A stretch of DNA of 64,000 nt from Candidatus Latescibacterota bacterium (GCA_965208835.1 OZ242358.1:3520001-3584000), one strand, 5' to 3'; counted from the first letter of the stretch, positions 19,974-64,000 are shown. Notes: generated by a model from the letters alone, not told the origin. Numbers and translations: made by a program.

Positions 19974-19989
19974 CACGTTTCTCCCGATT

Positions 19990-20041
19990 CTAGTGTTCTG
20001 TCCCGGAAATAAGTTACCTAATTTCCGGGACAGAACACTAG
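19990..20041. mobile_element. 52-bp palindrome: collapsed IS630-like terminal repeat pair
   Basis: ctagtgttctgtcccggaaat, 10-nt spacer, atttccgggacagaacactag (perfect 21-bp inverted repeat); right arm reads ISGTEH-stop, resembling IS630 transposase ends. Confidence 0.7.
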
Positions 20042-20113
20042 ACGCCATCAGCGATGCACGGTGCAGGGTATTGTGTACCCCGGAACGGGTTCATACCCGC
20101 AGGGAGGCCTGCC

Positions 20114-22327: not shown

Positions 22328-22468
22328 GGTCAAGCCTTCTTCGTAGAGACGCACGGCAAGTCACTGAGAAAATCTATCGAATATACACTCCGCACGCAAA
22401 GTATTTCTATGCTTGGCACGCGTGCGGGGAGCCGGTCCGCAATCCCGTAAATTCAGCATGCTTCGGCA

Positions 22469-32211: not shown

Positions 32212-32273
32212 GATCGTGTGCCCTGCGCGAAATACGACACCTGAAACTGATGTCCCGCACCGCGATTCAGCTC

Positions 32274-33002
32274 TCAGACCCCCGGCGGTTCCAGGATGAC
32301 CGTCACGCCCAAATCCAGGTAGATCGACCGTTGCTCGGCCGCGGCGATCCGGTGACACACGGCCACACCGGTACCCTCGAGAGACCTTGCCACGTAGGCC
32401 ACGGCGTCATCGACCGACTTCAGGGCGTGATTGGGATGTGACCTCAGGTTGAACGTGAGGTCGGTGGGGCCGAACGAAAGGCAATCCACCCCGGGCCTGG
32501 CCAGAAAATGCGCCCGGGTCGCGGCCTCTACCGACTCGATCTGCAGCCACAGCACCCCGTATGCGTTCCACCAGTCCGCGTATTCGAAGGGATCGGAGAT
32601 CGTGGACGCCCCGCGCCGCGAACGTCCGCCGATACTCCGGATCCCCGCCTGCGGATAGTAGAATGCGTCCACGGCCTCGATTGCCGTCTCATCCGTCTCC
32701 GTCTGGGGCACCTCGACGCCACACGGCCCAAGGTCCAGGTAATTTCCGATCAGGTACGCGTTCCTCGTGTGTTTGATGCGAAACTGGACAAATACGTCCA
32801 ATTCCTCAGCGATGCCGCAGAATTCCTCCAACCGCTCCTCATTGAACGCGGAGTGCTGGCTGTCGGCAGACACGAAATCGTACGGACCGCTGTCCATCAC
32901 CTGCAGGAAACGCTCCCGCGTCGCATCCAGCGGCAGCGTCGTACCCACAATCTGTTCTCCACTGCGTATCCGTTTCTTCAGACCAATGGCGTTTTCGAAC
33001 AT
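32274..33002 (-). CDS. Divergent HpcH/HpaI aldolase family protein
   Basis: DSQHS, LDLGPCGVEVP, YYPQAGIRS, LQIES, FGPTDL. Confidence 0.85.
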   Translation of the reverse strand: MFENAIGLKKRIRSGEQIVGTTLPLDATRERFLQVMDSGPYDFVSADSQHSAFNEERLEEFCGIAEELDVFVQFRIKHTRNAYLIGNYLDLGPCGVEVPQTETDETAIEAVDAFYYPQAGIRSIGGRSRRGASTISDPFEYADWWNAYGVLWLQIESVEAATRAHFLARPGVDCLSFGPTDLTFNLRSHPNHALKSVDDAVAYVARSLEGTGVAVCHRIAAAEQRSIYLDLGVTVILEPPGV

Positions 33003-48878: not shown

Positions 48879-49146
48879 TGCCCTGCTGAAATGGGTATGC
48901 CGCCTGCATCGACAAAACCGTACAAAACGAAACCGGCTCTGTCAAATACAAAACCACAAGGCGGTCAGAGAATCTGAGTTGGAACGACCTTAGTCAGCGC
49001 ACTTCGACCGGCGGGCTGCCAGTCAAGCCGCAGCGTTTCGCATTACCTGTCACGTTTCGAATCTTTCCGCAGCACAACGCCTTTCCCGCAAGCCCATGTG
49101 GGCAGCAAAATCGTCAGCTGTCGTGATTTCAATTCCGTGTATTTCG

Positions 49147-49180
49147 TTGACACACATTGTCTCAGTGTGTATCTTACACA
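49147..49180 (+). promoter_or_regulatory. hicAB promoter with overlapping ACACA/TGTGT inverted repeats (putative HicB operator)
   Basis: TTGACA (49147-49152), 17-bp spacer, TATCTT (49170-49175); ACACA..TGTGT..ACACA boxes. Confidence 0.7.
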
Positions 49181-49182
49181 TT

Positions 49183-49377
49183 ATGACGAGTTCCGAGATC
49201 ATTCGAAAGTTGACGCAAGATGGATGGGTTCTGAAAAACACAAAGGGGAGCCACCATCAGTTCACGCATGCGCGGAAGTCCGGCCGGGTTACCGTCAAAC
49301 ATCCGAGCAAGGACATTCCAATCGGAACACTGCGCAACATCTACAGACAAGCCGAATGGCAATGGGAGGACCGCTGA
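49183..49377 (+). CDS. hicA: HicA mRNA interferase toxin
   Basis: IIRKLTQDGW...KGSHHQFTH...VTVKHP.KDIPIGTLRNI. Confidence 0.95.
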   Translation: MTSSEIIRKLTQDGWVLKNTKGSHHQFTHARKSGRVTVKHPSKDIPIGTLRNIYRQAEWQWEDR

Positions 49378-49799
49378 TGCGATTTCCAGTTGCGATTCAC
49401 AAGGACGCCAGTACCGGATATGGCGTCACCGTGCCGGATCTGCCGGGGTGCTTCTCGGCCGGAGATACGCTGGAAGACGCCATTGTCTCGGCTCACGAGG
49501 CCATCTCCTGCCACATTGAGGGCCTGTTGATGGACGGTGAGCCGATTCCGGAACAGGCGCCCATCGAGACCCACCGGGCTCGCGAAGCCGGAAGCCCCAC
49601 ATGGGCACTCGTATCCGTCGACGTTTCGCGCCTGTCGAGCGCGATCCGGCGGGTTAATATCTCAATGCCGGCGCGTGTGTTGGCCATCGTGGACGAGGCT
49701 GCAGCGCGGGAGGGCGAATCACGTTCGGGTCTGCTAGCGCGCGCGGCCCTCAGCTATATTCATCAAGGTTCCGTTGCGGTTCAACGAGACGAATCTTGA
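49377..49799 (+). CDS. hicB: HicB antitoxin with C-terminal ribbon-helix-helix
   Basis: YGVTVPDLPGCFSAGDTLEDA, RVNISMP, SRSGLLA; TGATG coupling with hicA. Confidence 0.95.
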   Translation: MRFPVAIHKDASTGYGVTVPDLPGCFSAGDTLEDAIVSAHEAISCHIEGLLMDGEPIPEQAPIETHRAREAGSPTWALVSVDVSRLSSAIRRVNISMPARVLAIVDEAAAREGESRSGLLARAALSYIHQGSVAVQRDES

Positions 49800-49841: not shown

Positions 49842-52028
49842 TCACCTCGGATTCAGCGCCAGCCAGGACCTCAGTGCCGGCGCCTGCGGGTGGTCCGGCG
49901 CCAGGTCCAGGACTCTTCTGAAGTTTGCCCGGGTTTTCCGTACGTTTCCCAACGTGTGATAGACAACGCCCAGGTTGTAAAACCCCTCGGCGTATCCGGG
50001 GTCCAGGGCCACGGCCTTCTCATAAGCGGATATGGCCTGTTCATAGTCCCTCAGACTGAGATACGCGTTCCCAAGATTCGAATGCGCCCGGGCATTACCC
50101 GGTTTCAGCGCAATCGCTTTTCGGTAGGCCCCGACCGCCGCGTCGAACTGTCCCGTTCTATAGTACAGATCGCCGACATTGTAATAGGCCGCAACGAACC
50201 GCGGCTTCAATGCGATCGTCTCTTCGAAATATCCCGCCGCCCTGTCATATTTCCTCAGACCGTACAGGGCATTGCCCATCTGGAAGTGCGCTTCCGCGAA
50301 ATCCGGCTTTAGTTCAATCACCTTCTCGAATTTCCCGATTGCCCGTTCGTACTTCCCTGTGTCGTAATACATATTTCCAAAATTGTAATAGGCTTCCGCG
50401 AAATCCGGCTCCAGCGCGATCACCTTCTGAAAGTACACCGACGCTCGATCATACTGTTTCAAGTCGTAATACAGGTTGCCGAGATTGTAAAAACCGCCCG
50501 CAAATCCTGGATCGGCTTCAGTCGCCGCTTCGTACGCCCCGATCGCCTGAACACTCCTTCCGTGATCCCTGTGGTATACCGCAAGCGTCTCCCATCCGTG
50601 CGACCGGGCGTGCGCCGACAGATATCCCCCTTCCATTTTACTGGAAAACCGGGCTTCGGCGGACAAATCGTCCGCGTTAACGCCGATCCAGAACACCGTG
50701 TGCAGGACCGCGGCCGCGCAGATCAATCCGGCGGCATCGACGGAGACGATCCGATCCCGAAACTCGCGGACCACAGTGAGCGCCGCCCACAACGTAATGG
50801 GCAATGCCGCGAAGGCGAAAACGTCCCAATCCCTGAAAGCGCCAAGTTCGGGGTTCGCGACAACCGTAAACAGGATGGGAAACAGCGCGGCAACCAGAAC
50901 AAACTGACGATCTGGCCCCCGCAGCCAGCTCGTCCTTCGGCACAGAAGCAGAGCCATCAGGGCAGACGGCGTAACGAGGAAGTACTGATTCACGAAATCG
51001 ACCCATTTCCCAATTGAAAACAACCTGTAGTGTTGTTTGGGTCCAGGTTCCGAAAACAGGTTCAGGATATAAAACCCCTGTCTCTTTTGAAGATACGCGA
51101 TCAGGTCGAACTGAATCAGCAGGAGCGCGCCGAAACAAACGACGGCGCTAACCAGCAGGGCGAACCCCGCTCTCGCTGCCAACCTCCCGTGACCGGTTGT
51201 ACCTGAGACACCCTCCGCCCGGCCATTGAGTATGGCCAGCGCCAGCAGGGAGGGCGCAAGCGTCATCATCGTTATATGGAGCGCCATCAGGACGCCCAGC
51301 AAGGCCGCGGGCCACCAGACCGTCAACCTGCCATTGAGTACGCGAATGCCCAGGAGCAGATATAGCAGCATAAACGGGAACAGAAACGCGTAATTTTCAA
51401 CATAAGCGAAAAAAAGCTGCATATACCCGGCCCCCAGCAACAGAGCCAGAATCAGGAATCGCTCCAGGGCGCCCTTCCCAAGGAGCCGCGCGGCATATCT
51501 GGCTACAACCAGATAGAGGATTCCGGAAACGCAACTAAAGATACGATACGTGGTCTCGGCGGAATGCCATGCTGACGCACCGGCACGGTGCAGCCCCCTG
51601 ACGATCCAGAACGTCAGCGGCGCGCGGTCCGTCCTCGGGACTTCGGACCAGAAGTCGTCCAGTTCGCGCATCAACATAATCCCGTCGCCGAGCAGATGCA
51701 CGGCGGATCGCATGCTCCAGAAAACCATAAGGCCGCCGAACAGAAGCAGGACCCACGAGAGAACCGATTGCCAGGTGCCGAATCCGCTGTCGAAGAACCT
51801 TGCAATGCCCCGGGTCCACCGCCCAAGGCGCCGCCGGGCAGCCATAAAAAGCAGCGCCGTGCTCAACAGCACGAAAATCGTCCGTGAAATGGCATCGTGG
51901 AACCGCAGGAAATCAACACCCCATACTGACACGGGCTGCCAGTAGGCGAACAGAATATGCAGGCCAAGAAAAAAACCAACCAATATGATCGGCTTACCGG
52001 TATCCGTGTGCTCTTCCTTCCGTTGCAT
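49842..52028 (-). CDS. Multi-pass membrane protein (GT-C-like) with C-terminal TPR array
   Basis: More than ten TM helices, LLGDG first loop, YVENY, RDWD; about seven canonical TPRs (AYYNFGNMY). Confidence 0.8.
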   Translation of the reverse strand: MQRKEEHTDTGKPIILVGFFLGLHILFAYWQPVSVWGVDFLRFHDAISRTIFVLLSTALLFMAARRRLGRWTRGIARFFDSGFGTWQSVLSWVLLLFGGLMVFWSMRSAVHLLGDGIMLMRELDDFWSEVPRTDRAPLTFWIVRGLHRAGASAWHSAETTYRIFSCVSGILYLVVARYAARLLGKGALERFLILALLLGAGYMQLFFAYVENYAFLFPFMLLYLLLGIRVLNGRLTVWWPAALLGVLMALHITMMTLAPSLLALAILNGRAEGVSGTTGHGRLAARAGFALLVSAVVCFGALLLIQFDLIAYLQKRQGFYILNLFSEPGPKQHYRLFSIGKWVDFVNQYFLVTPSALMALLLCRRTSWLRGPDRQFVLVAALFPILFTVVANPELGAFRDWDVFAFAALPITLWAALTVVREFRDRIVSVDAAGLICAAAVLHTVFWIGVNADDLSAEARFSSKMEGGYLSAHARSHGWETLAVYHRDHGRSVQAIGAYEAATEADPGFAGGFYNLGNLYYDLKQYDRASVYFQKVIALEPDFAEAYYNFGNMYYDTGKYERAIGKFEKVIELKPDFAEAHFQMGNALYGLRKYDRAAGYFEETIALKPRFVAAYYNVGDLYYRTGQFDAAVGAYRKAIALKPGNARAHSNLGNAYLSLRDYEQAISAYEKAVALDPGYAEGFYNLGVVYHTLGNVRKTRANFRRVLDLAPDHPQAPALRSWLALNPR

Positions 52029-52060
52029 AATCGCCCGCTCTTTGTGCAGAATACTACGGG

Positions 52061-54607
52061 TCAGCCCGAGGCGTTTCGGGAATTCCGTCGCGCGATGCGT
52101 GGACCGACCAATATTACCGCCGCCGCCAGCAGCAGCACGACGTCGACAATCAGCAGGGTGAAACGCAGCGGCGAAAGCGTGGGTTCAAGTACGATCCGGC
52201 TTTCCCCCGGGCCCAGTTTCAGCGCCACAAATCGCCCTGCCGTCGTGTACGGACGCACCTCGCCGCCATTTACGGTGATCCGCTGATGTGGATAGGCCGT
52301 ATATGCCAGCCGCGCGAAACAGGCCGCGCTGGCACGTACGACCAATTCGACCCGCTGGTTCCACAACCGGTGCGCCAGAACCTCCACCCGCGGCGACGTG
52401 CCCAGGTCTTCCTTCGCGTGTTCGTCCGTCACCAGGATCTGCTCGCAGGCACGGTTTTTTATGTCAACGTCCATAGACTGCAGCAACTTCACAAAGTCGC
52501 TCAATGCGAGGCTCTGGATCCTGCGCGCTTCCCGTTCATCCACACCCGACCCGGACCGGGCGCGCGCCCGGTCCAGTTCAAGGACCGGATAGGGCCATCC
52601 GGAGATTTTCGACGATACGACGACCGGACTGGCTTCAGGAAATTCTCCATGAAAGATCCGGTCCTGTTCTGAATCCGAATACAGCAGATGGCGGGTGTTC
52701 ATCAGAAAGAGCCCCGCCCGGATAACGTCGAATCCCGGCGTCTCCTCCAGGCCGGCCCCGTCGTCAAGGCGCTCCAGCGACAGGTGAAGCAGATCCTGGA
52801 AACGCCGGACAAAGGCCGGAACCGACAGCGGATACTGCGTGAACGTATCCAGAGGTGTCGCCAGGCCCGTCTCGAGGGTCAGCCAGGGGATGACGAAGTG
52901 ATAATAGATCCTGTTGGTCGTATGGAACACCCGATAGCCGGGAAGCTGTCCGTCCATGTGAGCTGCAAGTTCCTCCCGGAACCGTCTGTAAACGGGATGA
53001 TGCTGCAACGGCAGCGGCTTCGCAACAGGCCAGGCGTTCGGGTCACGCCGCAGGTCCTGCAAGGCGCGCGGCCCGATTTTCGACGCCACACCGGGAGAAC
53101 GGTACGGCTGCTGGAAGGTGGTTGGCCCCAAATCCGCCAGGACCACCACGAGAATCGCCACGAAGACCCCGACGGGGCGCTTCCGATCGGCAGCGCGCAC
53201 GGCCGCAAACAAACCCACCAGCACGGCGACAAAGAACACCACAAACAGCAGATAGCGGGAGGCGTTCATCGCCTGCACCACCCCAAGGGACTTCAGGACC
53301 GGCCAACGGTAACCGAATACCAGCAGCAGCGAACCGATCAGGCAGAAGCCGATCGGAAAACCCCAGGCACGCACTTCAGCCCTGCCGCTTCGAACGATCC
53401 GTACCAGTCCCCACAGGGCAATCGCGACCAGACTCACCCCGAGATAGCCGCCGTACCAGTGGTCCTGCGCCTGAAAGAGCCGGAACCGGTAGTTGGACCA
53501 GAGCAGCAGATGCCGCCAGGTGGGCATCGGAAAATCGGACATGTAGAACCCGGCGTGAAGCCCCGTCAGTCCCCGTTCCAGATACATCGGAACGGTCAAA
53601 TAAGCGCCCAGCAGCGCGCCACCGCCGAAAAGCAGCAATCCGTACCGGATTGAAAAAGGCGTGTCTCCGCTTCTGGTCATCCGGCACCTGACTAACGCAT
53701 ATAACAAGAGAAATAACGTTGCCCAAAATCCGTAACCGGGATGCGTAACGTGCAGACAACCCAGCGCGATACCGCCGCCAATCGCCTGGGCCAGCCGATT
53801 CGGATTGTTCCGAAGCCCCTCCCAGTAGTAAAACGGCAACGGAAGCAGGGCGTAGAACAGCGAGAGCGGCAACCTGCCCATAATGAGGACCTGCTGCGTA
53901 TGCCAGAAACTCAATACGTACGCGAGCCCCGCCGCGACCCCGGCCTGTCGCGACCCCGTCAACCGCCGGACGAAAAGATACGCACCCAACCCGGATACCG
54001 CATGGGCGGCGCCCAGCACGAATTTGATTGACGAGAACGGCGCCTGAAGCACCAGATTCACCAGCCCGACCAGGTAGTAGAACAGGAAGCCGTAAAACTG
54101 CAGGTAGGGCGCGCCATTGCAAAAGTAGTGCGTCCAGATCGGGACCTCACCCTGCAGCATTGACGTTGCCGCCAGCCAGGCGTATGTCACGTGCAGGTAC
54201 GTGTCGGCGCCATGCGCGAATTCCCCCTCGGCAAAATAAAAGCGAACCAGAATCAGGCTCCCCGAAACAAGGAACACGACAGTCCGCCTTTCACTCGCGA
54301 AGATGTGCTCGAAAAATACCGAGAGTCGCCGTCCGCGCCACTCCATGCCGATCAGGAGCATTCCAACAAGGAATATAAATATGAGCAGCAGTGCATCGGC
54401 GGTGCTGAAATCCACGAACCGCGATATAACCGATAGAAAGCCCTGAAGACTGTGATACCTCAGGCCCGGTCGAAGAACGCCGAACTTATCCAGCGTCACA
54501 TACTGGAAGAAAATCAGCAGCCCCGCCAGCAACGCCAGCAGGGCCGACACGTCCAGGGGCCATCCGGTTGTTTTACGTCCCTCAGGCCGTTTCAAATCGT
54601 ACTCCAC
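52061..54607 (-). CDS. GT-C-like membrane protein (6-pyruvoyl-tetrahydropterin synthase-related / YfhO-like)
   Basis: GADTYLH, PIWTHYFCNGAPYLQFYG, GAYLFVRRL, YLG, RYL; C-terminal AYP...TVNG Ig-like tail. Confidence 0.75.
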   Translation of the reverse strand: MEYDLKRPEGRKTTGWPLDVSALLALLAGLLIFFQYVTLDKFGVLRPGLRYHSLQGFLSVISRFVDFSTADALLLIFIFLVGMLLIGMEWRGRRLSVFFEHIFASERRTVVFLVSGSLILVRFYFAEGEFAHGADTYLHVTYAWLAATSMLQGEVPIWTHYFCNGAPYLQFYGFLFYYLVGLVNLVLQAPFSSIKFVLGAAHAVSGLGAYLFVRRLTGSRQAGVAAGLAYVLSFWHTQQVLIMGRLPLSLFYALLPLPFYYWEGLRNNPNRLAQAIGGGIALGCLHVTHPGYGFWATLFLLLYALVRCRMTRSGDTPFSIRYGLLLFGGGALLGAYLTVPMYLERGLTGLHAGFYMSDFPMPTWRHLLLWSNYRFRLFQAQDHWYGGYLGVSLVAIALWGLVRIVRSGRAEVRAWGFPIGFCLIGSLLLVFGYRWPVLKSLGVVQAMNASRYLLFVVFFVAVLVGLFAAVRAADRKRPVGVFVAILVVVLADLGPTTFQQPYRSPGVASKIGPRALQDLRRDPNAWPVAKPLPLQHHPVYRRFREELAAHMDGQLPGYRVFHTTNRIYYHFVIPWLTLETGLATPLDTFTQYPLSVPAFVRRFQDLLHLSLERLDDGAGLEETPGFDVIRAGLFLMNTRHLLYSDSEQDRIFHGEFPEASPVVVSSKISGWPYPVLELDRARARSGSGVDEREARRIQSLALSDFVKLLQSMDVDIKNRACEQILVTDEHAKEDLGTSPRVEVLAHRLWNQRVELVVRASAACFARLAYTAYPHQRITVNGGEVRPYTTAGRFVALKLGPGESRIVLEPTLSPLRFTLLIVDVVLLLAAAVILVGPRIARRNSRNASG

Positions 54608-54754
54608 GCCTTTGAAGCTGCTTAGAAAATAACCTGCGAGAATACGAAACTACAAGAATACGAAGAATCCGTGGGTGAGATCAATTGCCACAAGAGGCCC
54701 AAAACCACATTGCGGAGAACGTATTCCAAGCGCGCTGACTCAACGCATCTGGCG

Positions 54755-55393
54755 CTACTCGAAGGACAACCCCACTCGAGCGGGGAAAAGCTGGGTGCTG
54801 CCACGCTCTCCTGACGTAAATCCGGCCTCGAACCGGGCTTCGGCAAAGAGGTGGACCCGGTCCGTCAGCCGGATGTCGATTCCGGCGCCCGCATTCACCG
54901 CGAACCCGGTGCCGGATTGGCCGTCAACGTGAAAGATCTGGTTGCCAATCTCAACCACTTCCGTATCGGTTTCGGAATAAGACAGTATGCCCACGCCGCC
55001 AACCGCATACGGAACCGCCCTTACGTCCAGATCGTCGGAATCGATCGCCTTCGTGTATTTCAGACTGGCATACGCGCTGAACAGATGCTTGTCTCCGCCG
55101 CTGGTGCTCGTCACAACACCGAGCGCGTCGTTTTCCGCCTTGAATTTCCCCTCATCGAATCCGAAACGGACATAATTGATATTCCCCTGAAGCGCTATGC
55201 TGGGGTTGAGGAAATATTCCGCTCCGACTCCCAGGCCGATGCCCGGATACCAGAAGTCCGACAGCGAACTGGATGCAGACGCGGCAAACCCCGCGGTGAC
55301 GAAATAAACCGGCTTCTGCTGCGCTTCGACGTCGCCTGTCCATCCGCCTGCAAGCAAATGTACCCAGATTAAAATCGACAACACTCTCACCAT
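54755..55393 (-). CDS. Outer-membrane beta-barrel protein (OmpA/porin-like)
   Basis: Signal peptide, amphipathic strands, PYAVGGVG, NAGAGIDI, aromatic C-terminus (VGLSFE). Confidence 0.85.
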   Translation of the reverse strand: MVRVLSILIWVHLLAGGWTGDVEAQQKPVYFVTAGFAASASSSLSDFWYPGIGLGVGAEYFLNPSIALQGNINYVRFGFDEGKFKAENDALGVVTSTSGGDKHLFSAYASLKYTKAIDSDDLDVRAVPYAVGGVGILSYSETDTEVVEIGNQIFHVDGQSGTGFAVNAGAGIDIRLTDRVHLFAEARFEAGFTSGERGSTQLFPARVGLSFE

Positions 55394-55444
55394 ATCAGGT
55401 CTCCTTTTTCCGTCAGTCATCCACTCCTACTCCCGTCCAGCGTC

Positions 55445-56797
55445 TTACCTGTCACCGCCTTCCCCCAGCCTCCTCCATCCCTGAAGAATGGACGGGATCA
55501 TCTCTACGGGTTGTCCGGCTTTGCAGAAAACCGCCCACATGACATCCCAGACCCGCGGATTCCACTGGCACAGATCGATCCAGTCCGCACACGGCGTACT
55601 ATCTCCGTCCATACTGTCCACGCGTCCGCCGATCACGGGATCATCCACCGACCCGTTCCACATCTGGTCCAACAGGGTATGCGCGAATCGCTTCATATCG
55701 GCGTTGTTGAATACGACGCCGCGCCGGCAGGCATCGACCGCAAATCCGACATCGATTCGCCCGTGGCTGATATCTTCAATGGCGCTGTGTCCGTGAACGC
55801 CGCCTTCGATCCAGTCCCAATAGTACCAGGTATACGCACGACCTGTTTTCCACAAATGCCGCTTGAAATTCTTCGCCATGCGTTGCGCCCGATCGGCAAA
55901 CAGGCTTTTCCGCGATACGCTCTGCAGCGACAGGTAAGCACGACCCAGCGCGAGATACTGATTGTGCGGCATGATCCGGTTCGGAAACCGTTCCGTCATC
56001 CACGGGGAAAACCGATATCCGCCCGAGGACGGGGATGCATCCACCCAGTCACGCTCGTGCTTTTCGGCGATCTGTCTTCCGATAAGGCGAAGAAACGTCC
56101 GTGCGCTGGTTCCGAAGCCGGCCTTCAGCTGCGCACTTTTCAGGACGTGCTCGACAAAGCGGCTCACGGGATGCAGGAACATTCCCTGGTGAACGATATA
56201 CTCCAGCGGCTCGCCCGCAAATACATGCACCCAGAACCGGTCACCGGCGCGCGCGGTGCCATCGATGGTGATCTTGAACGGCGCAAAACCCTTCAGCGTT
56301 GCGCCGGGCCGAAACCGGCCGTCCGCCAATACCTTCCGTGTCCCATATTCCTGGACGGCGTACCTTCGCCCGGGGAGGACCTCCACGACGCGAATGCAAT
56401 CCTTCGCCATGTCACCCCCGCGGATAACCCACACCCGGTCCTCCTGTGGTGTGATCCGAGCCGTTCCACGGTTGTGCATCGGTCCCGTTCTCACCAGCGC
56501 CACCGAATACGTCGGGGTAACCCAGGTCGCATGCCCGTCGGCAAAGTGGTCCTGCCCTGTGGCGATCATCCGGTCGAAATGGTCTACGACCTTTCCCAGC
56601 CACCTCTCGTCCCCGGTAGATTCATAGATTTTGACGTACGCATCCAGAAACCCGCTCTCTCCCCATCCCAGGCTCCCGGAGTCCGGTTCGTCCGCTTGTC
56701 CTCTGCCACGATTGTGTGACCGGTCATAGCCGGCAAACCTTTCGACCATTTCCTGGAGATCAAAAGGCGCTGTGCGGGTGTTCACGGATGCCTCCAC
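55445..56797 (-). CDS. Hypothetical protein, probable alpha/alpha-toroid carbohydrate-active fold (start uncertain)
   Basis: LGWGES, YESTGDERWL, PHNQYLALG, WYYW and EDISHG segments. Confidence 0.7.
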   Translation of the reverse strand: MEASVNTRTAPFDLQEMVERFAGYDRSHNRGRGQADEPDSGSLGWGESGFLDAYVKIYESTGDERWLGKVVDHFDRMIATGQDHFADGHATWVTPTYSVALVRTGPMHNRGTARITPQEDRVWVIRGGDMAKDCIRVVEVLPGRRYAVQEYGTRKVLADGRFRPGATLKGFAPFKITIDGTARAGDRFWVHVFAGEPLEYIVHQGMFLHPVSRFVEHVLKSAQLKAGFGTSARTFLRLIGRQIAEKHERDWVDASPSSGGYRFSPWMTERFPNRIMPHNQYLALGRAYLSLQSVSRKSLFADRAQRMAKNFKRHLWKTGRAYTWYYWDWIEGGVHGHSAIEDISHGRIDVGFAVDACRRGVVFNNADMKRFAHTLLDQMWNGSVDDPVIGGRVDSMDGDSTPCADWIDLCQWNPRVWDVMWAVFCKAGQPVEMIPSILQGWRRLGEGGDR

Positions 56798-56804
56798 TTT
56801 GGAC

Positions 56805-56904
56805 GGGCGCCCACAAGGGACGCCCCTACAAGGTAAGGGGCGAACAATTCGCTATGTAGCAGGAAGTCTAATTGAAAATGTAGGGGCGTCCCTTGTGGGC
56901 GCCC
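56805..56904. repeat. REP doublet (REPIN-like, GTAG-type)
   Basis: Perfect 26-bp inverted repeat gggcgcccacaagggacgcccctaca / tgtaggggcgtcccttgtgggcgccc with a 48-bp spacer. Confidence 0.88.
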
Positions 56905-56995
56905 CCCTTTTCGTCTTAGACTATTCTGACCACTGCTTTTCGCCTTTGATCTTCTCTCTCCCCTCACTCCTATTCTCTCTCTCCTCGCCTTGCGC

Positions 56996-59900
56996 TCATT
57001 GAACGTAGAACCCGGTCTCTCTGTTCGATGTCAGTCCGCTGTTCAGGTCGATCACGTCGATTTCCAGAATATACTGTCCGGGCTTTGTGGATTTCAGATC
57101 CAGTTCCATGTACACCTCTTCTGACTCCGAGTTTCCAATCTGTTCGTATCCCACTGCGAGTTCCTGTTTTTTGCCGGTCAGCACACGCACCAACTGCGAA
57201 ATGACCCCCCTGGCCTTGCGCCCCTGGACGCCTTTGGGTCGAATTGAATATTCGACCTTGTACCGGCTCTGCCCGAATTCGTCTTTCTTCAGGTGGTAAA
57301 TCTCGTAGTAGACGAATACACCCTGGTCCCTGCCGAATGTACGCGTAGGAATGGGTATGACGCGCAGACCGCCCTTCCTGAACTTCCCCGTTTCATCCGA
57401 CTCGACGACCGAGAATGCCAACTGCAGCTCGCTCAGCTGCAGGAATTCCCGGTCGTAGTTGTCAATCACGACCTCCTGGCGGTACCGTCCCTGCCTACCG
57501 GACAACCTGTCCTTGACCTGCACCTCCATCCTGTATGTGCCGGGGGGAACGTCCAGACCCACCAGATCGGGAACAAAGCCGCCGCGCGTGCCTGTCAGGT
57601 CGCCCCCTCCACGAAATACCAGGTTACCCTGCCTGCGGTACACCGCACCGGTGCGAGGGTTGTTCAATGCCACGGAACGCTCCAGAAACATCTCGGTTTC
57701 GTCGTCGTCCCCCGAATACTTGCCCAGTTTGTACGGCGCTCCGAAATAGACCTCGAGGAAGGATCCGGTACCCCGTTTGTCCTCCCGGAAGTTGGCCAGA
57801 TCGTAATAGAACTCCAGCGGCAGTTTGTTCTCAGGCGGCTTGTAGTAGTCCGGAGTTACCAGCGCCGCCTGTTGGGCTACGGACCGCGGATTGAACTGGT
57901 TAAACCGCGCCAACTGCTGCATCGGTATCCGAACGTCCATCGGCGGGGGCGCATATTCGAACTCGCCGCGCATGTGCTCGTCCGTAAACGTAATCTCGAT
58001 GCCCCCGTTCACATCGGTATAGACCCAGACTTCCCAAGGGACCATCGAGGCGTCGTCCTGAGAGGATACAGCCTTGAATGCGAAATCGTTTGGGGAGTCA
58101 CCGAGCGCCAGAGCACCCTGGTTCATCTGGACATTCTCAAACCGGAGTAACTCCAGGGAGGCATCCGAAACCTCATTGTCCGCCGTAATCCCCGATTCAA
58201 AGGTGATCCCCGTGCGCTGGGCCTGGCTCCCGGCTACGACCCGGGTGGCCTCGGTATTGCGGGAGGTGATGCTGAGATCCACGCCCTGCCGGTCGGCGGC
58301 GAACCCGTCGCCCAGGTTTGCGCCACCGCTGAGATTGGACTTCAGGCTGCGCACGGCGTACACGGGTCCGCCCATGAAAGTCATCTGAAGGGCAGCCTGC
58401 CCGTACATCTGCCGGGCGATGCGTTCCCGGACCCGCTGCACTTTCAGGCTCTGGTTGTAATTCTTCATATCGGAGGTTGACCGGTAGTCGGGTTCCCCGA
58501 ACCGGATATACACCTCGCCCCGGCGGTCCCACGGCTGTTTGCCCGTTGAATATGCGCCGAGCGCGTACCAGACACGCCGGTAATGTTCCAGCAGCCGCTC
58601 GTTGATGGCCGTTGTCAGGTCGGGGTCGTGCGCCGTCCAGAACCGCTTTACCAGGTCGACGCGACCCCGTCCATCGGCCTGCTCGTAGGCCTTGCGTTCC
58701 TCGGGGGACATCAGCAGGATCGGATCGCGATAAAGCGCCTGCTCCTCGTCCGTCGCCGCCTGCAGGAACTCTTTGAAATAACGATCCGCCCACTCCAACC
58801 GTCCCAACTGCACGCACGCCTGAGCCAACACGGCGAGAACGCCCGTTTCATCCGGATGTTCGAGGACGTAATCCGTAAGGAGCTCCACGATACGCTCGTA
58901 ATTCCGGGACCGCAAATAGACCGCGGCAAGGCGCTTTCGCCCTTCGGGGTCTTCAGGCTTCAGCGTCATGTATCGGGCGTAGAGGAGCGCCGCCCGTTCG
59001 AAATCCTCCTCGTGGACCTCGTACCATTCACCCAGCAGCAGATAGGCGGGCGCAAACGTTGGATCGATGTCGATCACTTTCTCAATGTCATATCTCGCGT
59101 CATGCTCCCGCAGGCTGCGCCGAAGCCTGGCCATGTTGAAACGCGCTTCCAGATAGTCACGGTCGTACTGCAGCGCCTTCGTATAGTAGCGGATCGCGTC
59201 GTATCGGGCCTTGGGCCGTGTTTCAAACACCTGCCCCAGCCCGTTATACGCCTCGGCCAACCTGTGGTCGAACCGTACGGCGCGTTCGAACGAACGCAAC
59301 GCGGCATCCGGATTCCTGGACTTCAGATAGGCGTAACCCAACTGAGAATGCCCGCGCGCGGATTTCGGCGCCATCAGCGTGACCACCTGCAGCACCGGCA
59401 CAGACGCCTTCGGATCCGATTCCAGCGCCCGTCTGCCGACGTCCAGCAGCGAATCGACCTGTGCCGTTCCCGCCGTCCTGTCCACCACCTCGAATCGGTC
59501 CCCGCGACGGACCAGTTCCAACAGCCGACCGCGGTGATACGGACTGATCACCATTGCTTCGCCGTCGACGGCGCCGGATCGATAGAAATAGCTGATTGTG
59601 CGTTTCCTCCGATCCATTGGTGACCTGAACACTTGTACAAGGATCCGCTCTTCCGAGTCGTCCAGCCCGCCGGCTCGCGCCGAAGCCTTTAAAACCTCCA
59701 GGTTGGCAGGCGGGCTGCCGTTGTGCAGTTGCCGGTACTCACGAATCATCTCACCGATCGCGGACAGGTTCTCCCTGCCGACCCATCGTGCGCCCTGGGA
59801 CGCCGCCATGCGCGACCTTCCGGCCAGTATTTTCGCGTAAGCCATTGCCGGCTTCGAATAGAGGAGGTGGTCCCGTGCAAGCGATTCGAATTGCTGGGCC

Positions 59901-60523
59901 GCATTACGATATAGACGCCGCGCCTGGCGAAACTCCCACTGATGCAGGGCCGCGTAGGCCATTTTCACGGTCATCATCGCCTTCTCAACGCCCGAGAGCG
60001 AGCGGCTGGGGCCGTTTCCCGGCCCCCCGTTCTGTGCGGAAACCCACGCCACATCGAGGTGTCTGAGTTCGACGACTCCCGGACGGCGGACGACCGTGCC
60101 GTTAATCATCACCTCCCACACCTGGCTCTCCACCATCGGCACTGCCGCCTGCCCCACCCCTGCGAGACGATAATCTCGCAACGGGCGGTCCTTGTAGAAC
60201 AGACGCCGCCCGTCCGCGGACCATCCCAATTGTCCCGGCGGCCCCGGGAAGGCGCCCAGTTTGCGTTCGGTTCCCGCTGCATCCGCGGTCCAGACTTCGG
60301 TCAGTGCCGCCTGTCCGTTTTCATAAGAAGCCGTCCAGATCCGCTGGTTGGCCGCCTGAGCCGGGACCGAATGCCCGAAAATGGCGAACAGACAGCAGGT
60401 GGCGAACAAGCGAAGAGAGCGTGAACTGAATGGGATGTTTTCCCGACTTGGCACCCAATTCTCCTCCCCGAAGACTCGGGGCAAGGTGTGAAACGAGAAC
60501 AAACTCGTCCTATTTGTCATCAT
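56996..60523 (-). CDS. Large GWxTD-domain TPR protein with extra N-terminal modules (start uncertain)
   Basis: TPR array, FWTAHDPDLTTAINERLLEHYRRVWYA, PWDRRGEVYIRFGEPD, WEVWVY, VYYEIYHL; paralogous to 20114-22327. Confidence 0.88.
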   Translation of the reverse strand: MMTNRTSLFSFHTLPRVFGEENWVPSRENIPFSSRSLRLFATCCLFAIFGHSVPAQAANQRIWTASYENGQAALTEVWTADAAGTERKLGAFPGPPGQLGWSADGRRLFYKDRPLRDYRLAGVGQAAVPMVESQVWEVMINGTVVRRPGVVELRHLDVAWVSAQNGGPGNGPSRSLSGVEKAMMTVKMAYAALHQWEFRQARRLYRNAAQQFESLARDHLLYSKPAMAYAKILAGRSRMAASQGARWVGRENLSAIGEMIREYRQLHNGSPPANLEVLKASARAGGLDDSEERILVQVFRSPMDRRKRTISYFYRSGAVDGEAMVISPYHRGRLLELVRRGDRFEVVDRTAGTAQVDSLLDVGRRALESDPKASVPVLQVVTLMAPKSARGHSQLGYAYLKSRNPDAALRSFERAVRFDHRLAEAYNGLGQVFETRPKARYDAIRYYTKALQYDRDYLEARFNMARLRRSLREHDARYDIEKVIDIDPTFAPAYLLLGEWYEVHEEDFERAALLYARYMTLKPEDPEGRKRLAAVYLRSRNYERIVELLTDYVLEHPDETGVLAVLAQACVQLGRLEWADRYFKEFLQAATDEEQALYRDPILLMSPEERKAYEQADGRGRVDLVKRFWTAHDPDLTTAINERLLEHYRRVWYALGAYSTGKQPWDRRGEVYIRFGEPDYRSTSDMKNYNQSLKVQRVRERIARQMYGQAALQMTFMGGPVYAVRSLKSNLSGGANLGDGFAADRQGVDLSITSRNTEATRVVAGSQAQRTGITFESGITADNEVSDASLELLRFENVQMNQGALALGDSPNDFAFKAVSSQDDASMVPWEVWVYTDVNGGIEITFTDEHMRGEFEYAPPPMDVRIPMQQLARFNQFNPRSVAQQAALVTPDYYKPPENKLPLEFYYDLANFREDKRGTGSFLEVYFGAPYKLGKYSGDDDETEMFLERSVALNNPRTGAVYRRQGNLVFRGGGDLTGTRGGFVPDLVGLDVPPGTYRMEVQVKDRLSGRQGRYRQEVVIDNYDREFLQLSELQLAFSVVESDETGKFRKGGLRVIPIPTRTFGRDQGVFVYYEIYHLKKDEFGQSRYKVEYSIRPKGVQGRKARGVISQLVRVLTGKKQELAVGYEQIGNSESEEVYMELDLKSTKPGQYILEIDVIDLNSGLTSNRETGFYVQ

Positions 60524-60586
60524 TATACAATAAGGAATATGGAAGAAAAATCAAAGCTGAATCTGGCCATGAAATAAAATCCACCA

Positions 60587-62560
60587 TCATTCCAACAGCA
60601 TCCGAATCCGGCGCCGGGCCTCGGATGAAACCTGCGGATCGCCGCGCCATTGCTTCAGAAATGCTTCGTAGGCCGTGACCGCATTCCCTGACTTGCCCTG
60701 GGTTTGAAGCACCGTACCCAGGTTAAAAAACGCTTTCGTGTCTCCCAACGCCGCTGACCTTCGATATGCCTGTGCCGCCTCATCCGGCCTGCCCGACTTC
60801 TCCAAAGCAACGCCGAGATTGAAGTGGGCTTCCCTATCCTCCGGCAGCAGAATCGCTGCCTGCCTGAATCCTTCGACCGCTGCCGCCGGTTCGCCGGCCC
60901 GCATGGCAGTCACGGCCAGATTCTTCCACGCTTCCGCATATCGCGGATCCAGGTCTACGGCTTTTCGATACGCCGCGAGCGCCTGTTCAAAAGTCCCCTT
61001 CACGCCGTACGCGTTGCCCATATTGTTATAGGTCATGGCTTCTTCCCGTATGGACAGCGCCCGTTGAAAAGCAAGAATCGCCTGGTCCATCCGTCCCCGC
61101 TCGGCATGCACCTGCCCGACCGCCTGGTGCATCTTCGCACTCTCAGGATATGCGCTGGCAGCACTGGAAAACAGGCTGAGATCATCTCTCCAATCTTTGT
61201 TTCGCACCACCGTGCGCGCGGCGTACCCCAGGCATACAAGGCCCATCGCGACAACCAGGGTGAACCCGAACCTCCTGAACAACCGCTCTGCGCCAATCCC
61301 CGCAAGCGCGAACACGCCGAGCGCAGGAATATACAGAAACCGCTCCTGAACCATTGAGTTCAGCAGTACCACGGTCTGCGACACGCCCATATAGGGCACC
61401 CAAAAAAGCGCTCCACAAAAAAACAGCCGTGGCCATCTGATCAGCGATCGCACCCACAACCCCAGTCCCGCTACCGCCAGTGCCAGGCCCGCGATTACAC
61501 CGGGCTCCAGCAGGGAAGCCGCAACCGGAATCGCATTGTACGAGTAATCCACGGAAAGCCGCCACGGTAAGACCAGGAGCGAAAAGTAGTGCCAGAAGAT
61601 TCTCCCGGCTGTGAGGATACGCGTCTCAAGCGAAGTGCCATAGAGTGGATTCACCAGCTCCGTCATCCCACCGGGTGCGAAGCCCAGTCCTGCTGCGGCG
61701 TCTCGCACGAACAGACAGATCCCGAATACGCCAGCAAAGCCCAGCCACCACGGCCATCTTGCCCGGCAGACATCCAGAATGCATCGGAGAAAATCCCTCC
61801 CCTCAAGTTCGCCCGCCGACCAGGCCAGACGCACTGTCGACGGTCCTCGCCGCCCTTTCCGTCCATCACCCTTGACGGATAAAATCCGGTTTCCTGGATC
61901 CGTCATCCCCGCCGCGAGGTCATATACGACGACCAGGCCCACCAATGCAAGCGCGCTCTCCTTGCTGAGTAATCCACAGAAGAAAGCAATAAGCGCGAGC
62001 ACATAGGCCGCTCGGGGACGCGAACGTTGCGTGTAAAACAGCATTCCAGTCAGCAGAAATGCGCCGGCGAGCAGGTCGGACCGGCCAAAGGTCACACCCG
62101 CCGCCACTTCCGAATGGATCGGATGCACCGCAAACAGCAAGCCCGCAAAAACCGCCGCAAAACGACTCATGCCCGTACGCCTGCACAGCATCCACGCCAG
62201 CAGGCTGCAACACACGTGAAGCAGCACGTTGGTTAGATGAAATCGAAACGGACGAATGCCTCCCAACGCGTCCAGCAGAAACGTAAGCACCGTTAGGGGC
62301 CGGTATTGACCTGTATCGTTTCCAGGATAGCCCGCCCAGTAGTGGGTTGTGAAAACGCTTCGAAAATCCAGCCGCTCCACGATCCAGCTTCGAACGATCA
62401 GAAACTGGTCGTCGTAAACCAACCCGTTTACCAGCGCGTTGGCATAAACCACAAACGCCGTGACGCCCACCAGAACGGGCCAAGCCCACGTGTGCTTTAC
62501 GTCCGCGCCGGAGGCCGTAATCGTGGGCGCCTGACGCTTCCGGGATTTACGTTTCGCCAT
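60587..62560 (-). CDS. TMTC-like protein O-mannosyltransferase homologue (GT-C + DUF1736 + TPR)
   Basis: VYDD, YRPL, FHLTNVLLH, FAVHPIHSE, GRSDLL, LLSKE, PWRLSVDYS, ERFLYIP, RNKDW, TPRs. Confidence 0.9.
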   Translation of the reverse strand: MAKRKSRKRQAPTITASGADVKHTWAWPVLVGVTAFVVYANALVNGLVYDDQFLIVRSWIVERLDFRSVFTTHYWAGYPGNDTGQYRPLTVLTFLLDALGGIRPFRFHLTNVLLHVCCSLLAWMLCRRTGMSRFAAVFAGLLFAVHPIHSEVAAGVTFGRSDLLAGAFLLTGMLFYTQRSRPRAAYVLALIAFFCGLLSKESALALVGLVVVYDLAAGMTDPGNRILSVKGDGRKGRRGPSTVRLAWSAGELEGRDFLRCILDVCRARWPWWLGFAGVFGICLFVRDAAAGLGFAPGGMTELVNPLYGTSLETRILTAGRIFWHYFSLLVLPWRLSVDYSYNAIPVAASLLEPGVIAGLALAVAGLGLWVRSLIRWPRLFFCGALFWVPYMGVSQTVVLLNSMVQERFLYIPALGVFALAGIGAERLFRRFGFTLVVAMGLVCLGYAARTVVRNKDWRDDLSLFSSAASAYPESAKMHQAVGQVHAERGRMDQAILAFQRALSIREEAMTYNNMGNAYGVKGTFEQALAAYRKAVDLDPRYAEAWKNLAVTAMRAGEPAAAVEGFRQAAILLPEDREAHFNLGVALEKSGRPDEAAQAYRRSAALGDTKAFFNLGTVLQTQGKSGNAVTAYEAFLKQWRGDPQVSSEARRRIRMLLE

Positions 62561-62589
62561 GTCTGCGTTTTCAAATACCCCCGTGGGCC

Positions 62590-62615
62590 GGGCAACCACA
62601 AGGGGCGCCCCTACA
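62590..62615 (-). repeat. Single GTAG-type REP, same family as 56805-56904
   Basis: gggcaaccacaaggggcgcccctaca, 23/26 identical to the doublet arm. Confidence 0.8.
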
Positions 62616-62727
62616 ACGTCAGGAAGCATTTCCGGGAGTTAACGAGAAGCTATGAGATTGCATAGATGAGGTGTCAGGGTATAGATGGCTGTTGGGTTGG
62701 TTCTCCATAGCATCAAGCAATATCAAT

Positions 62728-62772
62728 AAAGAACGGGCGGCGTCCAGGCTCAGAGTCCCGGTCGCCGCCCGT
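62728..62772 (-). terminator. Hairpin terminator downstream of the porV-like gene
   Basis: acgggcggcg...cgccgcccgt stem with an A-rich flank (U-rich on the minus strand). Confidence 0.6.
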
Positions 62773-62843
62773 CGGTTCATACGCCGACAAAGCGCCGGAC
62801 TATATCAGATTTGATTCGGATCCAACGCTTTGACTGGCCGCCG

Positions 62844-63836
62844 TTAGAACGTGCCGCCGACAGAAACGCGGATCGGCGGATCGAACATAACGACGCCGTC
62901 GTTCTTCTGCAGGAGCGACACCGCCACGTCAGCCGTGATCGTGCGACCCCCGAAGGTCTGCTTCAGCCCTGCGCCGACGGCAATGCTCTCAAGGTCGTAA
63001 TTCCACTTCCAGCCTGCGCGCAATGCCAACGCGTTCTGCAGCCACAACTCGGCGCCGAAGTGCCAGCGTTGCTCGAAGTCTACGAAGAACGCGCTTTCCA
63101 CGGAGGCGGTGAGGTAGGACGGATCGCCCTTTTCACCGTAAACTTCCGCCGCGACGCCGATATTGTAGACGAGCGGCAACAGGTACGCGCGGTCGCCCGA
63201 CTTGCGGTCCGGACCGAAGTTCCTGAACGCCATCGCGATGCGAAGGCTGCGAAAGCCCGTGTAGAAGAAACTGCCCACGTCCACCGTAAAGCCGGTGGTC
63301 TTTACCGTGTAGAGTTTTTCCTGGACGTAGTTCGCCTTGGCGCTGAACGAGAACTTGTCGGTGAACTTGATCGCATACAGCAGACCGACGGAGATATTAT
63401 GTACAACCACGTCCTGCCCGGTTCCGTTGGGCTGATAGATCGTGGTCTCCTTGGAGGGCTTCGGGTTGTGGGACACGACTGAAATGCCCAGCACCTCGCC
63501 CCTGGCCGAACGCGTGTTCCACACGGCTGCAGCCGAGTAAAGCTGCGTGTCGAGAAGGAATCTCGTCCAGTTCAACTGATAGGCCACGCGCTCCACGTGT
63601 ACCAACCCGGAGCCGTTCCAGAAGATCGCGTTGATATCGTCCGCTACCGCGGTAAACGCGTCGCCCATCGCCACGGCGCGGGCGCCCTGGCCGATCTTCA
63701 GGAACTGCATCCCGGAGATATTGACTTTCTTGACACCATACTCACCGGTCACCCCGCCCCACTTCACGGCCAAAGCCGGTGAAGCGGCAAGCAGCAGGGC
63801 CAAGACCGACGCAATGATTAGCATGCTTCTTTTCAC
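62844..63836 (-). CDS. porV: PorV/PorQ-family outer-membrane barrel (T9SS shuttle homologue)
   Basis: QFLKIGQGARAVAMGDAFTAVADDINAIFWN, ETTIYQPNGTG, LALRAG; GTG start after AGGAGG. Confidence 0.85.
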   Translation of the reverse strand: MKRSMLIIASVLALLLAASPALAVKWGGVTGEYGVKKVNISGMQFLKIGQGARAVAMGDAFTAVADDINAIFWNGSGLVHVERVAYQLNWTRFLLDTQLYSAAAVWNTRSARGEVLGISVVSHNPKPSKETTIYQPNGTGQDVVVHNISVGLLYAIKFTDKFSFSAKANYVQEKLYTVKTTGFTVDVGSFFYTGFRSLRIAMAFRNFGPDRKSGDRAYLLPLVYNIGVAAEVYGEKGDPSYLTASVESAFFVDFEQRWHFGAELWLQNALALRAGWKWNYDLESIAVGAGLKQTFGGRTITADVAVSLLQKNDGVVMFDPPIRVSVGGTF

Positions 63837-63861
63837 GTCATTTCCTCCTTGTTTGAGCCCG

Positions 63862-64000
63862 CTACTTGATCAGCACGAAGCTGCCTTTTCGGGTCTCTCC
63901 GCCGGATACGACGACGAAATAGTACAAACCGGTCTGCACCTCGCCGGCGATATTGAACGTGATCTGACGAAACTCGGTCTCACCCTTGGTAAGCGGGGTC
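63862..64000 (-). CDS. 3' end of a protein with a T9SS type A-like C-terminal sorting tail (partial)
   Basis: Manual translation: ...TPLTKGETEFRQITFNIAGEVQTGLYYFVVVSGGETRKGSFVLIK-stop, matching the GxY...K...hydrophobic-K pattern. Confidence 0.75.
   Translation of the reverse strand, partial: TPLTKGETEFRQITFNIAGEVQTGLYYFVVVSGGETRKGSFVLIK

Follow-up and report, generated by a model that had tools for sequence, protein, structure and literature searches.

Animal TMTC enzymes mannosylate cadherins, whose domains belong to the Ig-like beta-sandwich class. To our knowledge, no TMTC-type glycosyltransferase is part of any described type IX secretion system (T9SS) of the Bacteroidota. The locus analysed here lies on the minus strand at positions 49842-64000 of a 64,000-nucleotide (nt) stretch of DNA, the window (G000:C1:3520001-3584000), from the 5.18-Mb, one-contig genome of a Candidatus Latescibacterota bacterium, a member of the FCB group. 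It carries a TMTC-type enzyme of the GT-C glycosyltransferase class, followed by a long exported protein with a GWxTD domain and tetratricopeptide repeats (TPRs). Both stand behind a cassette of outer-membrane genes that includes a PorV-like barrel and a protein with a T9SS-type tail. An initial annotation had treated the whole span as one line of eight genes, with three GT-C enzymes, for the periplasmic glycosylation and handling of exported proteins. The genes and a link among them are real, yet that annotation took in too much: the span is made of four layers rather than being a single eight-gene machine. Our preferred reading, to which we give a rough probability of 0.45, is that the genes point to dedicated periplasmic O-glycosylation of a cassette protein by the TMTC-type enzyme.

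The part of the work on animal TMTCs that we draw on (PMC7801869) describes a strictly conserved DD, SHKSYRP in the first luminal loop and KET(Q)xxT (M1, M2, M4) as their motifs. It places the DUF1736 loop between TM7 and TM8 and the TPRs in the lumen, and lists the segment LLFAVHPIHT in human TMTC3; the existence of prokaryotic homologues is merely mentioned in that part. Our literature search found no publication on the acceptor of a bacterial TMTC, none on GWxTD proteins and none linking Latescibacterota with T9SS or type IX secretion. For Cytophaga and Prevotella, the excerpts available to us discuss a connection of T9SS with glycosylation. In streptococci, according to the sections used here, YfhO-type GT-C enzymes work with GtrB, a GT2 enzyme making undecaprenyl-phosphate sugar, to glycosylate extracytoplasmic proteins, and the Pgf cluster of S. 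mutans encodes both enzymes and their adhesin acceptors (PMC12041528).

The TMTC-type gene lies at 60587-62629 on the minus strand and is listed as encoding 680 amino acids (aa), although its start, read from the translation, is probably the ATG at 62560. The protein scored 31.3 bits as a whole and 32.1 bits over residues 1-470 against PF08409 (TMTC_DUF1736; cut-off 27), with the match at residues 328-385, and its residues ~470-680 form TPRs (TPR_1 95.4 bits, TPR_2 87.3 bits). The motif VYDDQ (residues 71-75) directly follows the first membrane span, GQYRPL lies in the same loop, and FAVHPIHSE and SKES are also present; the DD and YRP are kept across 21 aligned relatives. Because the DUF1736 match is above cut-off, the TPRs are present and the motifs match M1, M2, M4 and the TMTC3 segment of PMC7801869, the sequence makes the identification as a true TMTC-type GT-C enzyme solid, and here the initial annotation was right. 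By homology the TPRs would face the periplasm, and by analogy with the animal enzymes the protein would transfer sugar from a polyprenyl-phosphate donor to Ser/Thr residues of a protein. It is the only TPR-bearing enzyme of the TMTC class in the genome. A PDB sequence search with the three membrane proteins of the window as single sequences returned 0, 0 and 6 rows, the six at chance level (E>=0.057).

The next gene (56996-60523, minus strand) encodes an exported GWxTD-TPR protein of 1175 aa, also recognised as such from the start. It matched TIGR04514 with 50.1 bits over residues 602-689 (cut-off 28), and Pfam PF20094 with 19.1 bits, which is below the cut-off of 26.9. The protein is built from an N-terminal region, TPRs, the GWxTD core with a disordered insert, and two C-terminal beta-sandwich domains, which also appear in a model of residues 590-1175 (pLDDT 72.9). 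In structure they are closest to the GH2 Ig-like domain (Z 10.3, root-mean-square deviation (rmsd) 2.6, 96 aligned) and the Wzt carbohydrate-binding domain (Z 9.2, rmsd 2.8, 109 aligned), both of them common folds; a PDB profile search with the C-terminal part gave no match.

The GWxTD core was modelled on a shorter, 746-aa paralog in the window (20114-22354; core 20948-21568), giving 207 aa at pLDDT 77.7 and pTM 0.79. The comparison found no solved relative of this model: among 48,161 chains the best VIA hit had Z 4.6 and none reached Z 5, and Foldseek gave E 0.71 at best. The modelled core thus appears to be without a detectable solved relative, by which a new fold is not proven. Among its conserved polar residues Arg, Asp, Glu and His predominate. 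A transglutaminase-like core was considered and ruled out: the transglutaminase rows stem from the two C-terminal beta-sandwiches, and the core has no invariant Cys. The 746-aa paralog is directly followed on the same strand by selB and selA, the selenocysteine genes (16651-20048).

Most of the cassette lies upstream of the TMTC gene and outside the window. At the window's end is the 3' end of a gene for an 829-aa exported protein, its last 46 codons (63862-64000, minus strand; whole gene L001:862-3351, reaching window coordinate 66351). Upstream of it are a 1077-aa TonB-dependent receptor (CarbopepD_reg + Plug), a 239-aa barrel and a second GWxTD-TPR gene. The initial annotation named this protein as T9SS-tailed, which curated models did not show: the tail is absent from the 24 canonical T9SS tails that TIGR04183 finds in the genome, and scans gave no Pfam or NCBIfam family at E<=0.001, with FlgD_ig at E 0.011. 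A hidden Markov model (HMM) of the genome's own 24 tails recognised one of five cassette tails, with E 0.0023. Comparison of the cassette-tail profile with the genome's profile of the T9SS C-terminal domain (CTD) by hhalign gave a match at 96.1% probability (E 3.6e-9) over 77 columns, in which the motifs PNP, IY..G..V and G.Y line up. On account of this profile-profile match to the genome's own tails, and despite the missing curated models, we regard the tail as a diverged T9SS-type CTD.

Between the tail protein and the enzyme lies the gene for a 330-aa outer-membrane barrel (62844-63836, minus strand). It belongs to the PorV/PorQ family (NF033709, 137.3 bits, cut-off 90), and to that extent its naming as PorV stands. 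Identity with PorV itself was rejected: the equivalog model NF033710 gave 47.4 bits, with a cut-off of 250, and the barrel is below the PorQ equivalog cut-off too. The genome has eight PorV/PorQ-family genes above the NF033709 cut-off, and its best PorV candidate (4051853-4052899) scored 153 bits, again below the equivalog cut-off of 250. Judged by these matches, the PorV-like protein of the locus is a paralog private to its cassette and not the shuttle PorV.

Complex prediction, which the initial annotation had put forward as a check, favoured an interaction between the barrel and the last 100 residues of its 829-aa neighbour. The score was 0.90 (median of three runs), against 0.00 for the best control; among solved complexes 116 of 157 attain this mark of 0.90, among mismatched pairs 2 of 215. 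The runs had at least 90% of their contacts in common, with a partner pLDDT of at least 68. The PorV-like barrel is therefore predicted to hold the tail of the neighbouring protein, a score that could mirror likeness to solved PorV-type complexes and is no proof that this copy binds.

Searching with the window's proteins against all open reading frames (ORFs; phmmer) revealed four sets besides this one, making five paralogous cassettes in the genome, each with a small barrel, a receptor, a protein of ~800 aa and a PorV-like barrel. A GWxTD gene lies 0.1-4.8 kb downstream in four of the five. A different receptor-partner pairing is found 12 kb upstream of the cassette studied here, where a second TonB-dependent receptor (CarbopepD_reg + Plug) is followed by a DUF4249 protein (L001:16436-19768, window coordinates 79436-82768).

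These parts suggest how the locus might work. In a first, outer-membrane layer, which is mostly upstream of the window, the private barrel would hold the tail of the ~830-aa exported protein. A second layer, specific to this cassette, would consist of the TMTC-type GT-C enzyme in the inner membrane, with its TPRs in the periplasm, and the long GWxTD-TPR protein. The enzyme would take a single sugar from a polyprenyl-phosphate donor and O-glycosylate a protein of its own cassette in the periplasm, ahead of the assembly or export of that protein. As candidate acceptor, the GWxTD protein, the constant companion of the enzyme, would come first and the tail-bearing protein second; both are proposed because they have Ig-like beta-sandwich domains and the animal TMTCs modify cadherin domains.

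Conservation of gene order is the main support for this picture. The TMTC-type protein was used as query against 151 genomes of the phylum, and ~20 kb was fetched around each of 16 matches; the gene caller used on the relatives' loci was crude. The closest relatives in the public collection are at 82-92% protein identity. The order receptor, tail protein, PorV-like barrel, TMTC, GWxTD and the 450-aa protein that follows it was seen in all six genomes of the genus. In a genus of another family (g4), receptor, tail protein, PorV-like and TMTC genes were in order in seven of eight genomes and the GWxTD ortholog came after in all eight, with gaps of 3-130 nt or with genes overlapping. The order was also found in L116, a relative at 62% identity, and in the genus g5. 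In the family f4, at 41-60% identity, barrel, receptor, tail protein, PorV-like, TMTC and GWxTD genes (the last aligned over residues 47-1174) lie on one strand, and in a second f4 genome two other genes stand between TMTC and GWxTD. The linkage of PorV-like, TMTC and GWxTD genes that had been proposed for this locus is thus conserved in three families of the class (f1, f2 and f4).

The genes around this core change. Six of the eight g4 genomes have a gene of 472-505 aa between TMTC and GWxTD, and the one scanned was a methyltransferase-GT2 fusion (PF00535, E 1.2e-24). Downstream in the L116 lineage are genes for a UDP-sugar dehydrogenase and an epimerase. The f4 locus has neither the fusion nor the dehydrogenase and epimerase, and none of the two membrane-protein genes that end our locus. 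Different sugar genes thus seem to have been recruited in each lineage around a fixed TMTC-GWxTD pair. In one g4 genome (G007) the TMTC gene, the fusion and the GWxTD gene are kept without the cassette, which we count, on gene order, as evidence for this pairing. As far as synteny can tell, the cassette, the TMTC-type enzyme and this GWxTD protein together make up the conserved unit, in which enzyme and GWxTD protein are the tightest pair. What is new is the part that follows the cassette, the TMTC-type GT-C and the 1175-aa GWxTD-TPR protein, kept in three families at 41-60% identity. Downstream of the conserved block, the g4 loci also have a 661-aa DUF6785/DUF6784 membrane protein between GWxTD genes (L118:14217-16202 and the same place in others).

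The GWxTD family at large behaves differently from this one member. The genome has 32 GWxTD matches. Three arrays of five to six tandem GWxTD genes (G000:C1:222888-244678, 751638-772787 and 5121555-5146827) are interleaved with FGE-sulfatase-type, Kelch and phosphodiesterase-type genes. A GWxTD alignment run as a profile over genome contigs retrieved 78 loci, partly from the same genomes as the TMTC query, and its best 80 matches were all from Latescibacterota-type metagenome-assembled genomes. A TMTC-type gene was present in 19 of the 78 loci, all of them orthologous to this locus; PorV-like genes were present in 23, the 450-aa family in 19, FGE-sulfatase-type genes in 14 and the methyltransferase-GT2 fusion was labelled in eight, and tandem GWxTD genes occurred as well. 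From these neighbourhoods, the general association of GWxTD proteins is with receptor cassettes rather than with glycosylation, so the tie between the two drawn in the initial annotation does not hold beyond the orthologs of this locus.

This census also bears on the possibility that the enzyme is a general envelope glycosyltransferase, acting on many periplasmic or exported proteins (for instance a domain class such as T9SS tails or GWxTD), with its gene merely inherited behind the cassette. A single TPR-bearing TMTC-class enzyme faces 32 genes for GWxTD proteins and no fewer than 24 for tail-bearing ones, and the compared genomes are all kin. The animal TMTCs, in the part of the source seen, act on a domain class rather than on a single protein (PMC11292533). 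We nevertheless think this unlikely. Down to 41-43% identity the enzyme stays beside the same GWxTD ortholog, with changing genes around the two. Moreover, four g4 genomes lack the TMTC ortholog, and their tail-protein matches are at paralog level only (32-35% identity), whereas a housekeeping enzyme would be expected to stay when the cassette orthologs go. The TMTC and cassette orthologs may have been gained and lost as a block, and the four genomes are possibly one subclade and so a single event.

The genome-wide search supports the idea of a T9SS-like system in a lineage outside the Bacteroidota. SprA/Sov was found with 485.4 + 140.3 bits against TIGR04189 in one 2094-aa frame, well above the cut-off of 200. 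A PorU-like protein of 1926 aa scored 312.6 bits with the PorU model, short of its cut-off of 420, and 233.6 bits with Peptidase_C25, and it has a canonical tail of its own. Of the components named in the initial annotation's proposed search (SprA, PorK-N and PorU), SprA is therefore present above cut-off and PorU as a PorU-like C25 peptidase. The GldK model gave partial, FGE-sulfatase-type matches only (<=88.8 bits). The GldL, GldM, GldN and PorP (TIGR03519) models had no match in the genome, and the same models were silent in all 14 control genomes.

An HMM of the TMTC membrane domain matched two of the 4052 called genes, the window's enzyme and a PMT_2-type protein of 621 aa without TPRs. 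This sister GT-C has the motifs LLDDDW, YYRPV and SKEM. Its gene overlaps the start of the PorU-like gene, and the adjacency was found by tblastn in 21 of 23 loci from the genera g1, g4 and g5. By our own arithmetic, done post hoc, the chance that both TMTC-class enzymes abut one of nine PorV/PorU-family genes is ~2e-5. In family scans the sister gene is part of a row outside the window (G000:C1:4109253-4123470, minus strand) of a Wzx-type flippase, a sulfotransferase, two GT4 enzymes, an epimerase, this TPR-less TMTC/PMT_2-class GT-C and the PorU-like C25 peptidase. The row from flippase to PorU-like gene may encode the glycan anchor chemistry of this T9SS.

The position of the sister gene between a Wzx-type glycan cluster and a PorU-like sortase gene brings in another explanation, in which the acceptor is a glycolipid or glycan. 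The GT-C enzymes would then modify lipopolysaccharide (LPS) or another surface glycan in the manner of ArnT, perhaps the anchor glycolipid for T9SS-type cargo, and the link to PorV and PorU would be by way of the anchor. According to the portion consulted of PMC4804311, cargo in Porphyromonas is linked to anionic LPS by PorU. The PTPS_related protein of our locus would also fit, as its group and the YfhO family include teichoic-acid glycosyltransferases in the account drawn on here (PMC12041528). Against this, the window's enzyme has a TPR domain and the full set of TMTC motifs, and TMTCs, as far as the consulted part of PMC7801869 goes, act on proteins. Family scans found no glycan-assembly genes in this locus, and by our prediction the cassette's own barrel would hold the tail, an arrangement in need of no glycolipid anchor. 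We consider a glycolipid acceptor quite unlikely.

The span itself is filled by seven complete ORFs and the 3' end of an eighth, so the eight genes of the initial annotation are confirmed in place and on the minus strand. The 450-aa protein (55445-56797, minus strand) follows the GWxTD gene. The initial annotation called it toroid-like, a tentative identity that would mean an (alpha/alpha)6 toroid fold of the glycoside-hydrolase kind. Library scans gave it no family match, and a profile of its family matched the PDB only at E>=0.17; the hints from relatives are weak (GH88 at best E 0.029 in 2 of 19, GH127 at E 0.097 in 1 of 19). In this genome the family numbers three genes, and all of them come after a GWxTD gene. 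Signal peptides are found in the paralogs, with a dockerin in 5 of 19; the ortholog group at this locus shows neither and may be cytoplasmic or have its start wrongly placed. The small beta-barrel that comes next (54755-55420, minus strand, 221 aa) was correctly called an outer-membrane barrel (PF13505, OMP_b-brl, 38.5 bits); its likeness to PorG is weak (24.4 bits, cut-off 130). It was labelled in four of the six genus genomes, and in the other two an ORF was called on the opposite strand. The 450-aa protein and the small barrel would form a third layer, accessory at the level of the family.

The last two genes are more loosely attached. The gene at 52061-54607 (minus strand) encodes a polytopic membrane protein of 848 aa whose sole match was PF10131 PTPS_related (39.6 bits, cut-off 26.4), a family that we take to belong to the GT-C clan. 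It had been called a YfhO-like GT-C, an identity we reject since no YfhO model matched at E up to 1. The gene at 49842-52028 (minus strand) encodes a membrane protein of 728 aa with ~11 hydrophobic spans and C-terminal TPRs, and has two paralogs elsewhere in the genome. The initial annotation made it a second GT-C-TPR enzyme. The TPRs are there, but residues 1-480 had no Pfam match and no PDB sequence match, and an hhalign comparison with the TMTC domain gave 0.6% probability. In the Atlas, the named clusters nearest to the membrane domain are TMEM260-like, PMT_2, PMT and GT87, at 0.94-0.95, which leaves this candidate's GT-C membership as a language-model lead only. These two proteins would be a fourth layer, a dispensable addition at the level of the genus.

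Their distribution decides the fate of the initial annotation's full model, in which all eight genes, three GT-C enzymes among them, serve as one line to glycosylate and handle T9SS cargo in the periplasm. The one strand throughout and the short gaps within four sub-blocks (24-66 nt) speak for it, and the whole eight-gene set was found in three of the six genus genomes (L067, L068 and L072). The PTPS_related gene, however, is full-length in four of the six, a 112-aa remnant in one and absent in one, the membrane-TPR gene is present in five, and neither was seen at the locus in g4, L116 or f4. With such gain and loss within a genus the eight genes are not one conserved unit, and the linkage claimed for these two genes is limited to the genus. 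The span is also split by REP elements and a hairpin, and the GT-C status of the last protein is unproven. We regard this model as very improbable.

The dividing elements had been noticed in the initial annotation as a terminator and REPs, and were found again. A hairpin with 16-nt arms, terminator-like, lies just 3' of the PorV-like stop codon (62733-62772, minus strand; terminator-like site 62745-62731). The gap between the PorV-like and TMTC genes, 214-283 nt, also contains a REP-like copy (62590-62615, 88% match to the 26-nt element). The 198-nt gap between the GWxTD and 450-aa genes contains an inverted pair (56805-56904; copies 56805-56830 and 56879-56904) whose 26-nt arms are 100% complementary. 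This GC-rich, REP-like element has 16 exact copies in the whole genome and 81 at <=4 mismatches, often as inverted pairs ~75-80 nt apart. At the other end of the locus, a plus-strand gene with a HicB-like antitoxin domain (49098-49799, E 1.1e-41) converges on the last gene and marks the boundary. Elsewhere in the window are two sulfatase genes (PF00884; 13908-15227 and 27944-29314) and a gene for a beta-helix protein (31003-32358), which would fit a lifestyle of using sulfated glycans.

Several observations weigh against dedicated glycosylation of a cassette protein. The compared genomes are all related, and the conserved order may partly reflect inheritance. No GT-C lies next to the remaining four cassettes or to ~30 further GWxTD genes, and glycosylation is therefore not required for this type of cassette. 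The G007 genome shows that the TMTC-GWxTD pair can exist apart from the cassette, and in our genome the hairpin and REP element stand between the PorV-like and TMTC genes. In other families of the class, TMTC-like genes had a tail-bearing or PorV-like gene within ~10 kb at 6 of 14 distinct loci (20 regions, grouped by eye), compared with ~27% expected from 45-113 tail genes per genome, which is not a clear enrichment. The GWxTD insert has only ~19% Ser+Thr. The locus contains no donor-synthase gene, and the best relatives of the g4 GT2 fusion elsewhere in the genome reached <=62 bits. We infer the enzyme's activity, its donor and the glycosylation of locus proteins from genes alone.

A TMTC-type enzyme with complete motifs, beside two concrete candidate acceptors and a PorV-like barrel in three families, gives a first testable clue to the acceptors of bacterial TMTCs and narrows the question of what they glycosylate to four or five proteins. 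The analysis also tells features of the widespread GWxTD/receptor cassette apart from those peculiar to this copy. Its value is limited by the organisms being uncultured and by every functional step being deduced. A wider and more doubtful proposal is that bacterial TMTC homologues are domain-specific protein O-glycosyltransferases of T9SS-type outer-membrane machinery. The TPR-bearing one would mark a beta-sandwich protein of a TonB-receptor/PorV-like cassette, the TPR-less sister would work with the PorU-like sortase, and the GWxTD core would be a periplasmic cassette partner with a fold lacking a solved relative. Such a system would be a prokaryotic counterpart, perhaps a forerunner, of cadherin O-mannosylation.

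The locus resembles several known systems in part. Like SusC/SusD (RagA/RagB), the cassette has a TonB-dependent receptor with CarbopepD_reg and Plug domains followed by a large exported partner, and it is multiplied in the genome. Unlike them, it gave no match to a SusD model in family scans, its partner is T9SS-tailed and has a barrel of its own, and GWxTD proteins accompany it. With the streptococcal GtrB/PgtC2 and Pgf systems it shares the association of a GT-C with a GT2, seen in g4 as the fusion beside the TMTC gene. The streptococcal enzymes, in contrast, are of the YfhO family, in Gram-positive organisms and with disordered poly-Ser/Thr targets, whereas our locus has a TMTC-type enzyme in a diderm organism, and the GWxTD insert shows no poly-Ser/Thr track like the streptococcal ones.

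The comparison with the Bacteroidota is closest to the PorV-PorU and PorQ-PorZ pairs. Here too a FadL-type barrel of the PorV/PorQ family lies beside a T9SS-tailed protein, with a predicted interface, in a genome that has SprA, a PorU-like C25 peptidase and canonical tails. It differs in that the barrel is below both equivalog cut-offs, the tail escapes the standard models, and TIGRFAM models found no PorL, PorM, PorN, PorP or GldK, the controls being silent as well. The enzyme itself is nearest to animal TMTC1-4. It differs from these in being bacterial, in having its gene within an outer-membrane receptor/PorV-like locus and in its putative donor, a bacterial polyprenyl-phosphate sugar. The two are alike in that both are polytopic GT-C enzymes with DD in the first outer loop, YRP and KE motifs, a DUF1736 loop and non-cytoplasmic C-terminal TPRs, as far as the animal enzymes are described in the part of PMC7801869 used here, and the acceptors proposed for our locus, like those of the animal enzymes, carry beta-sandwich domains.

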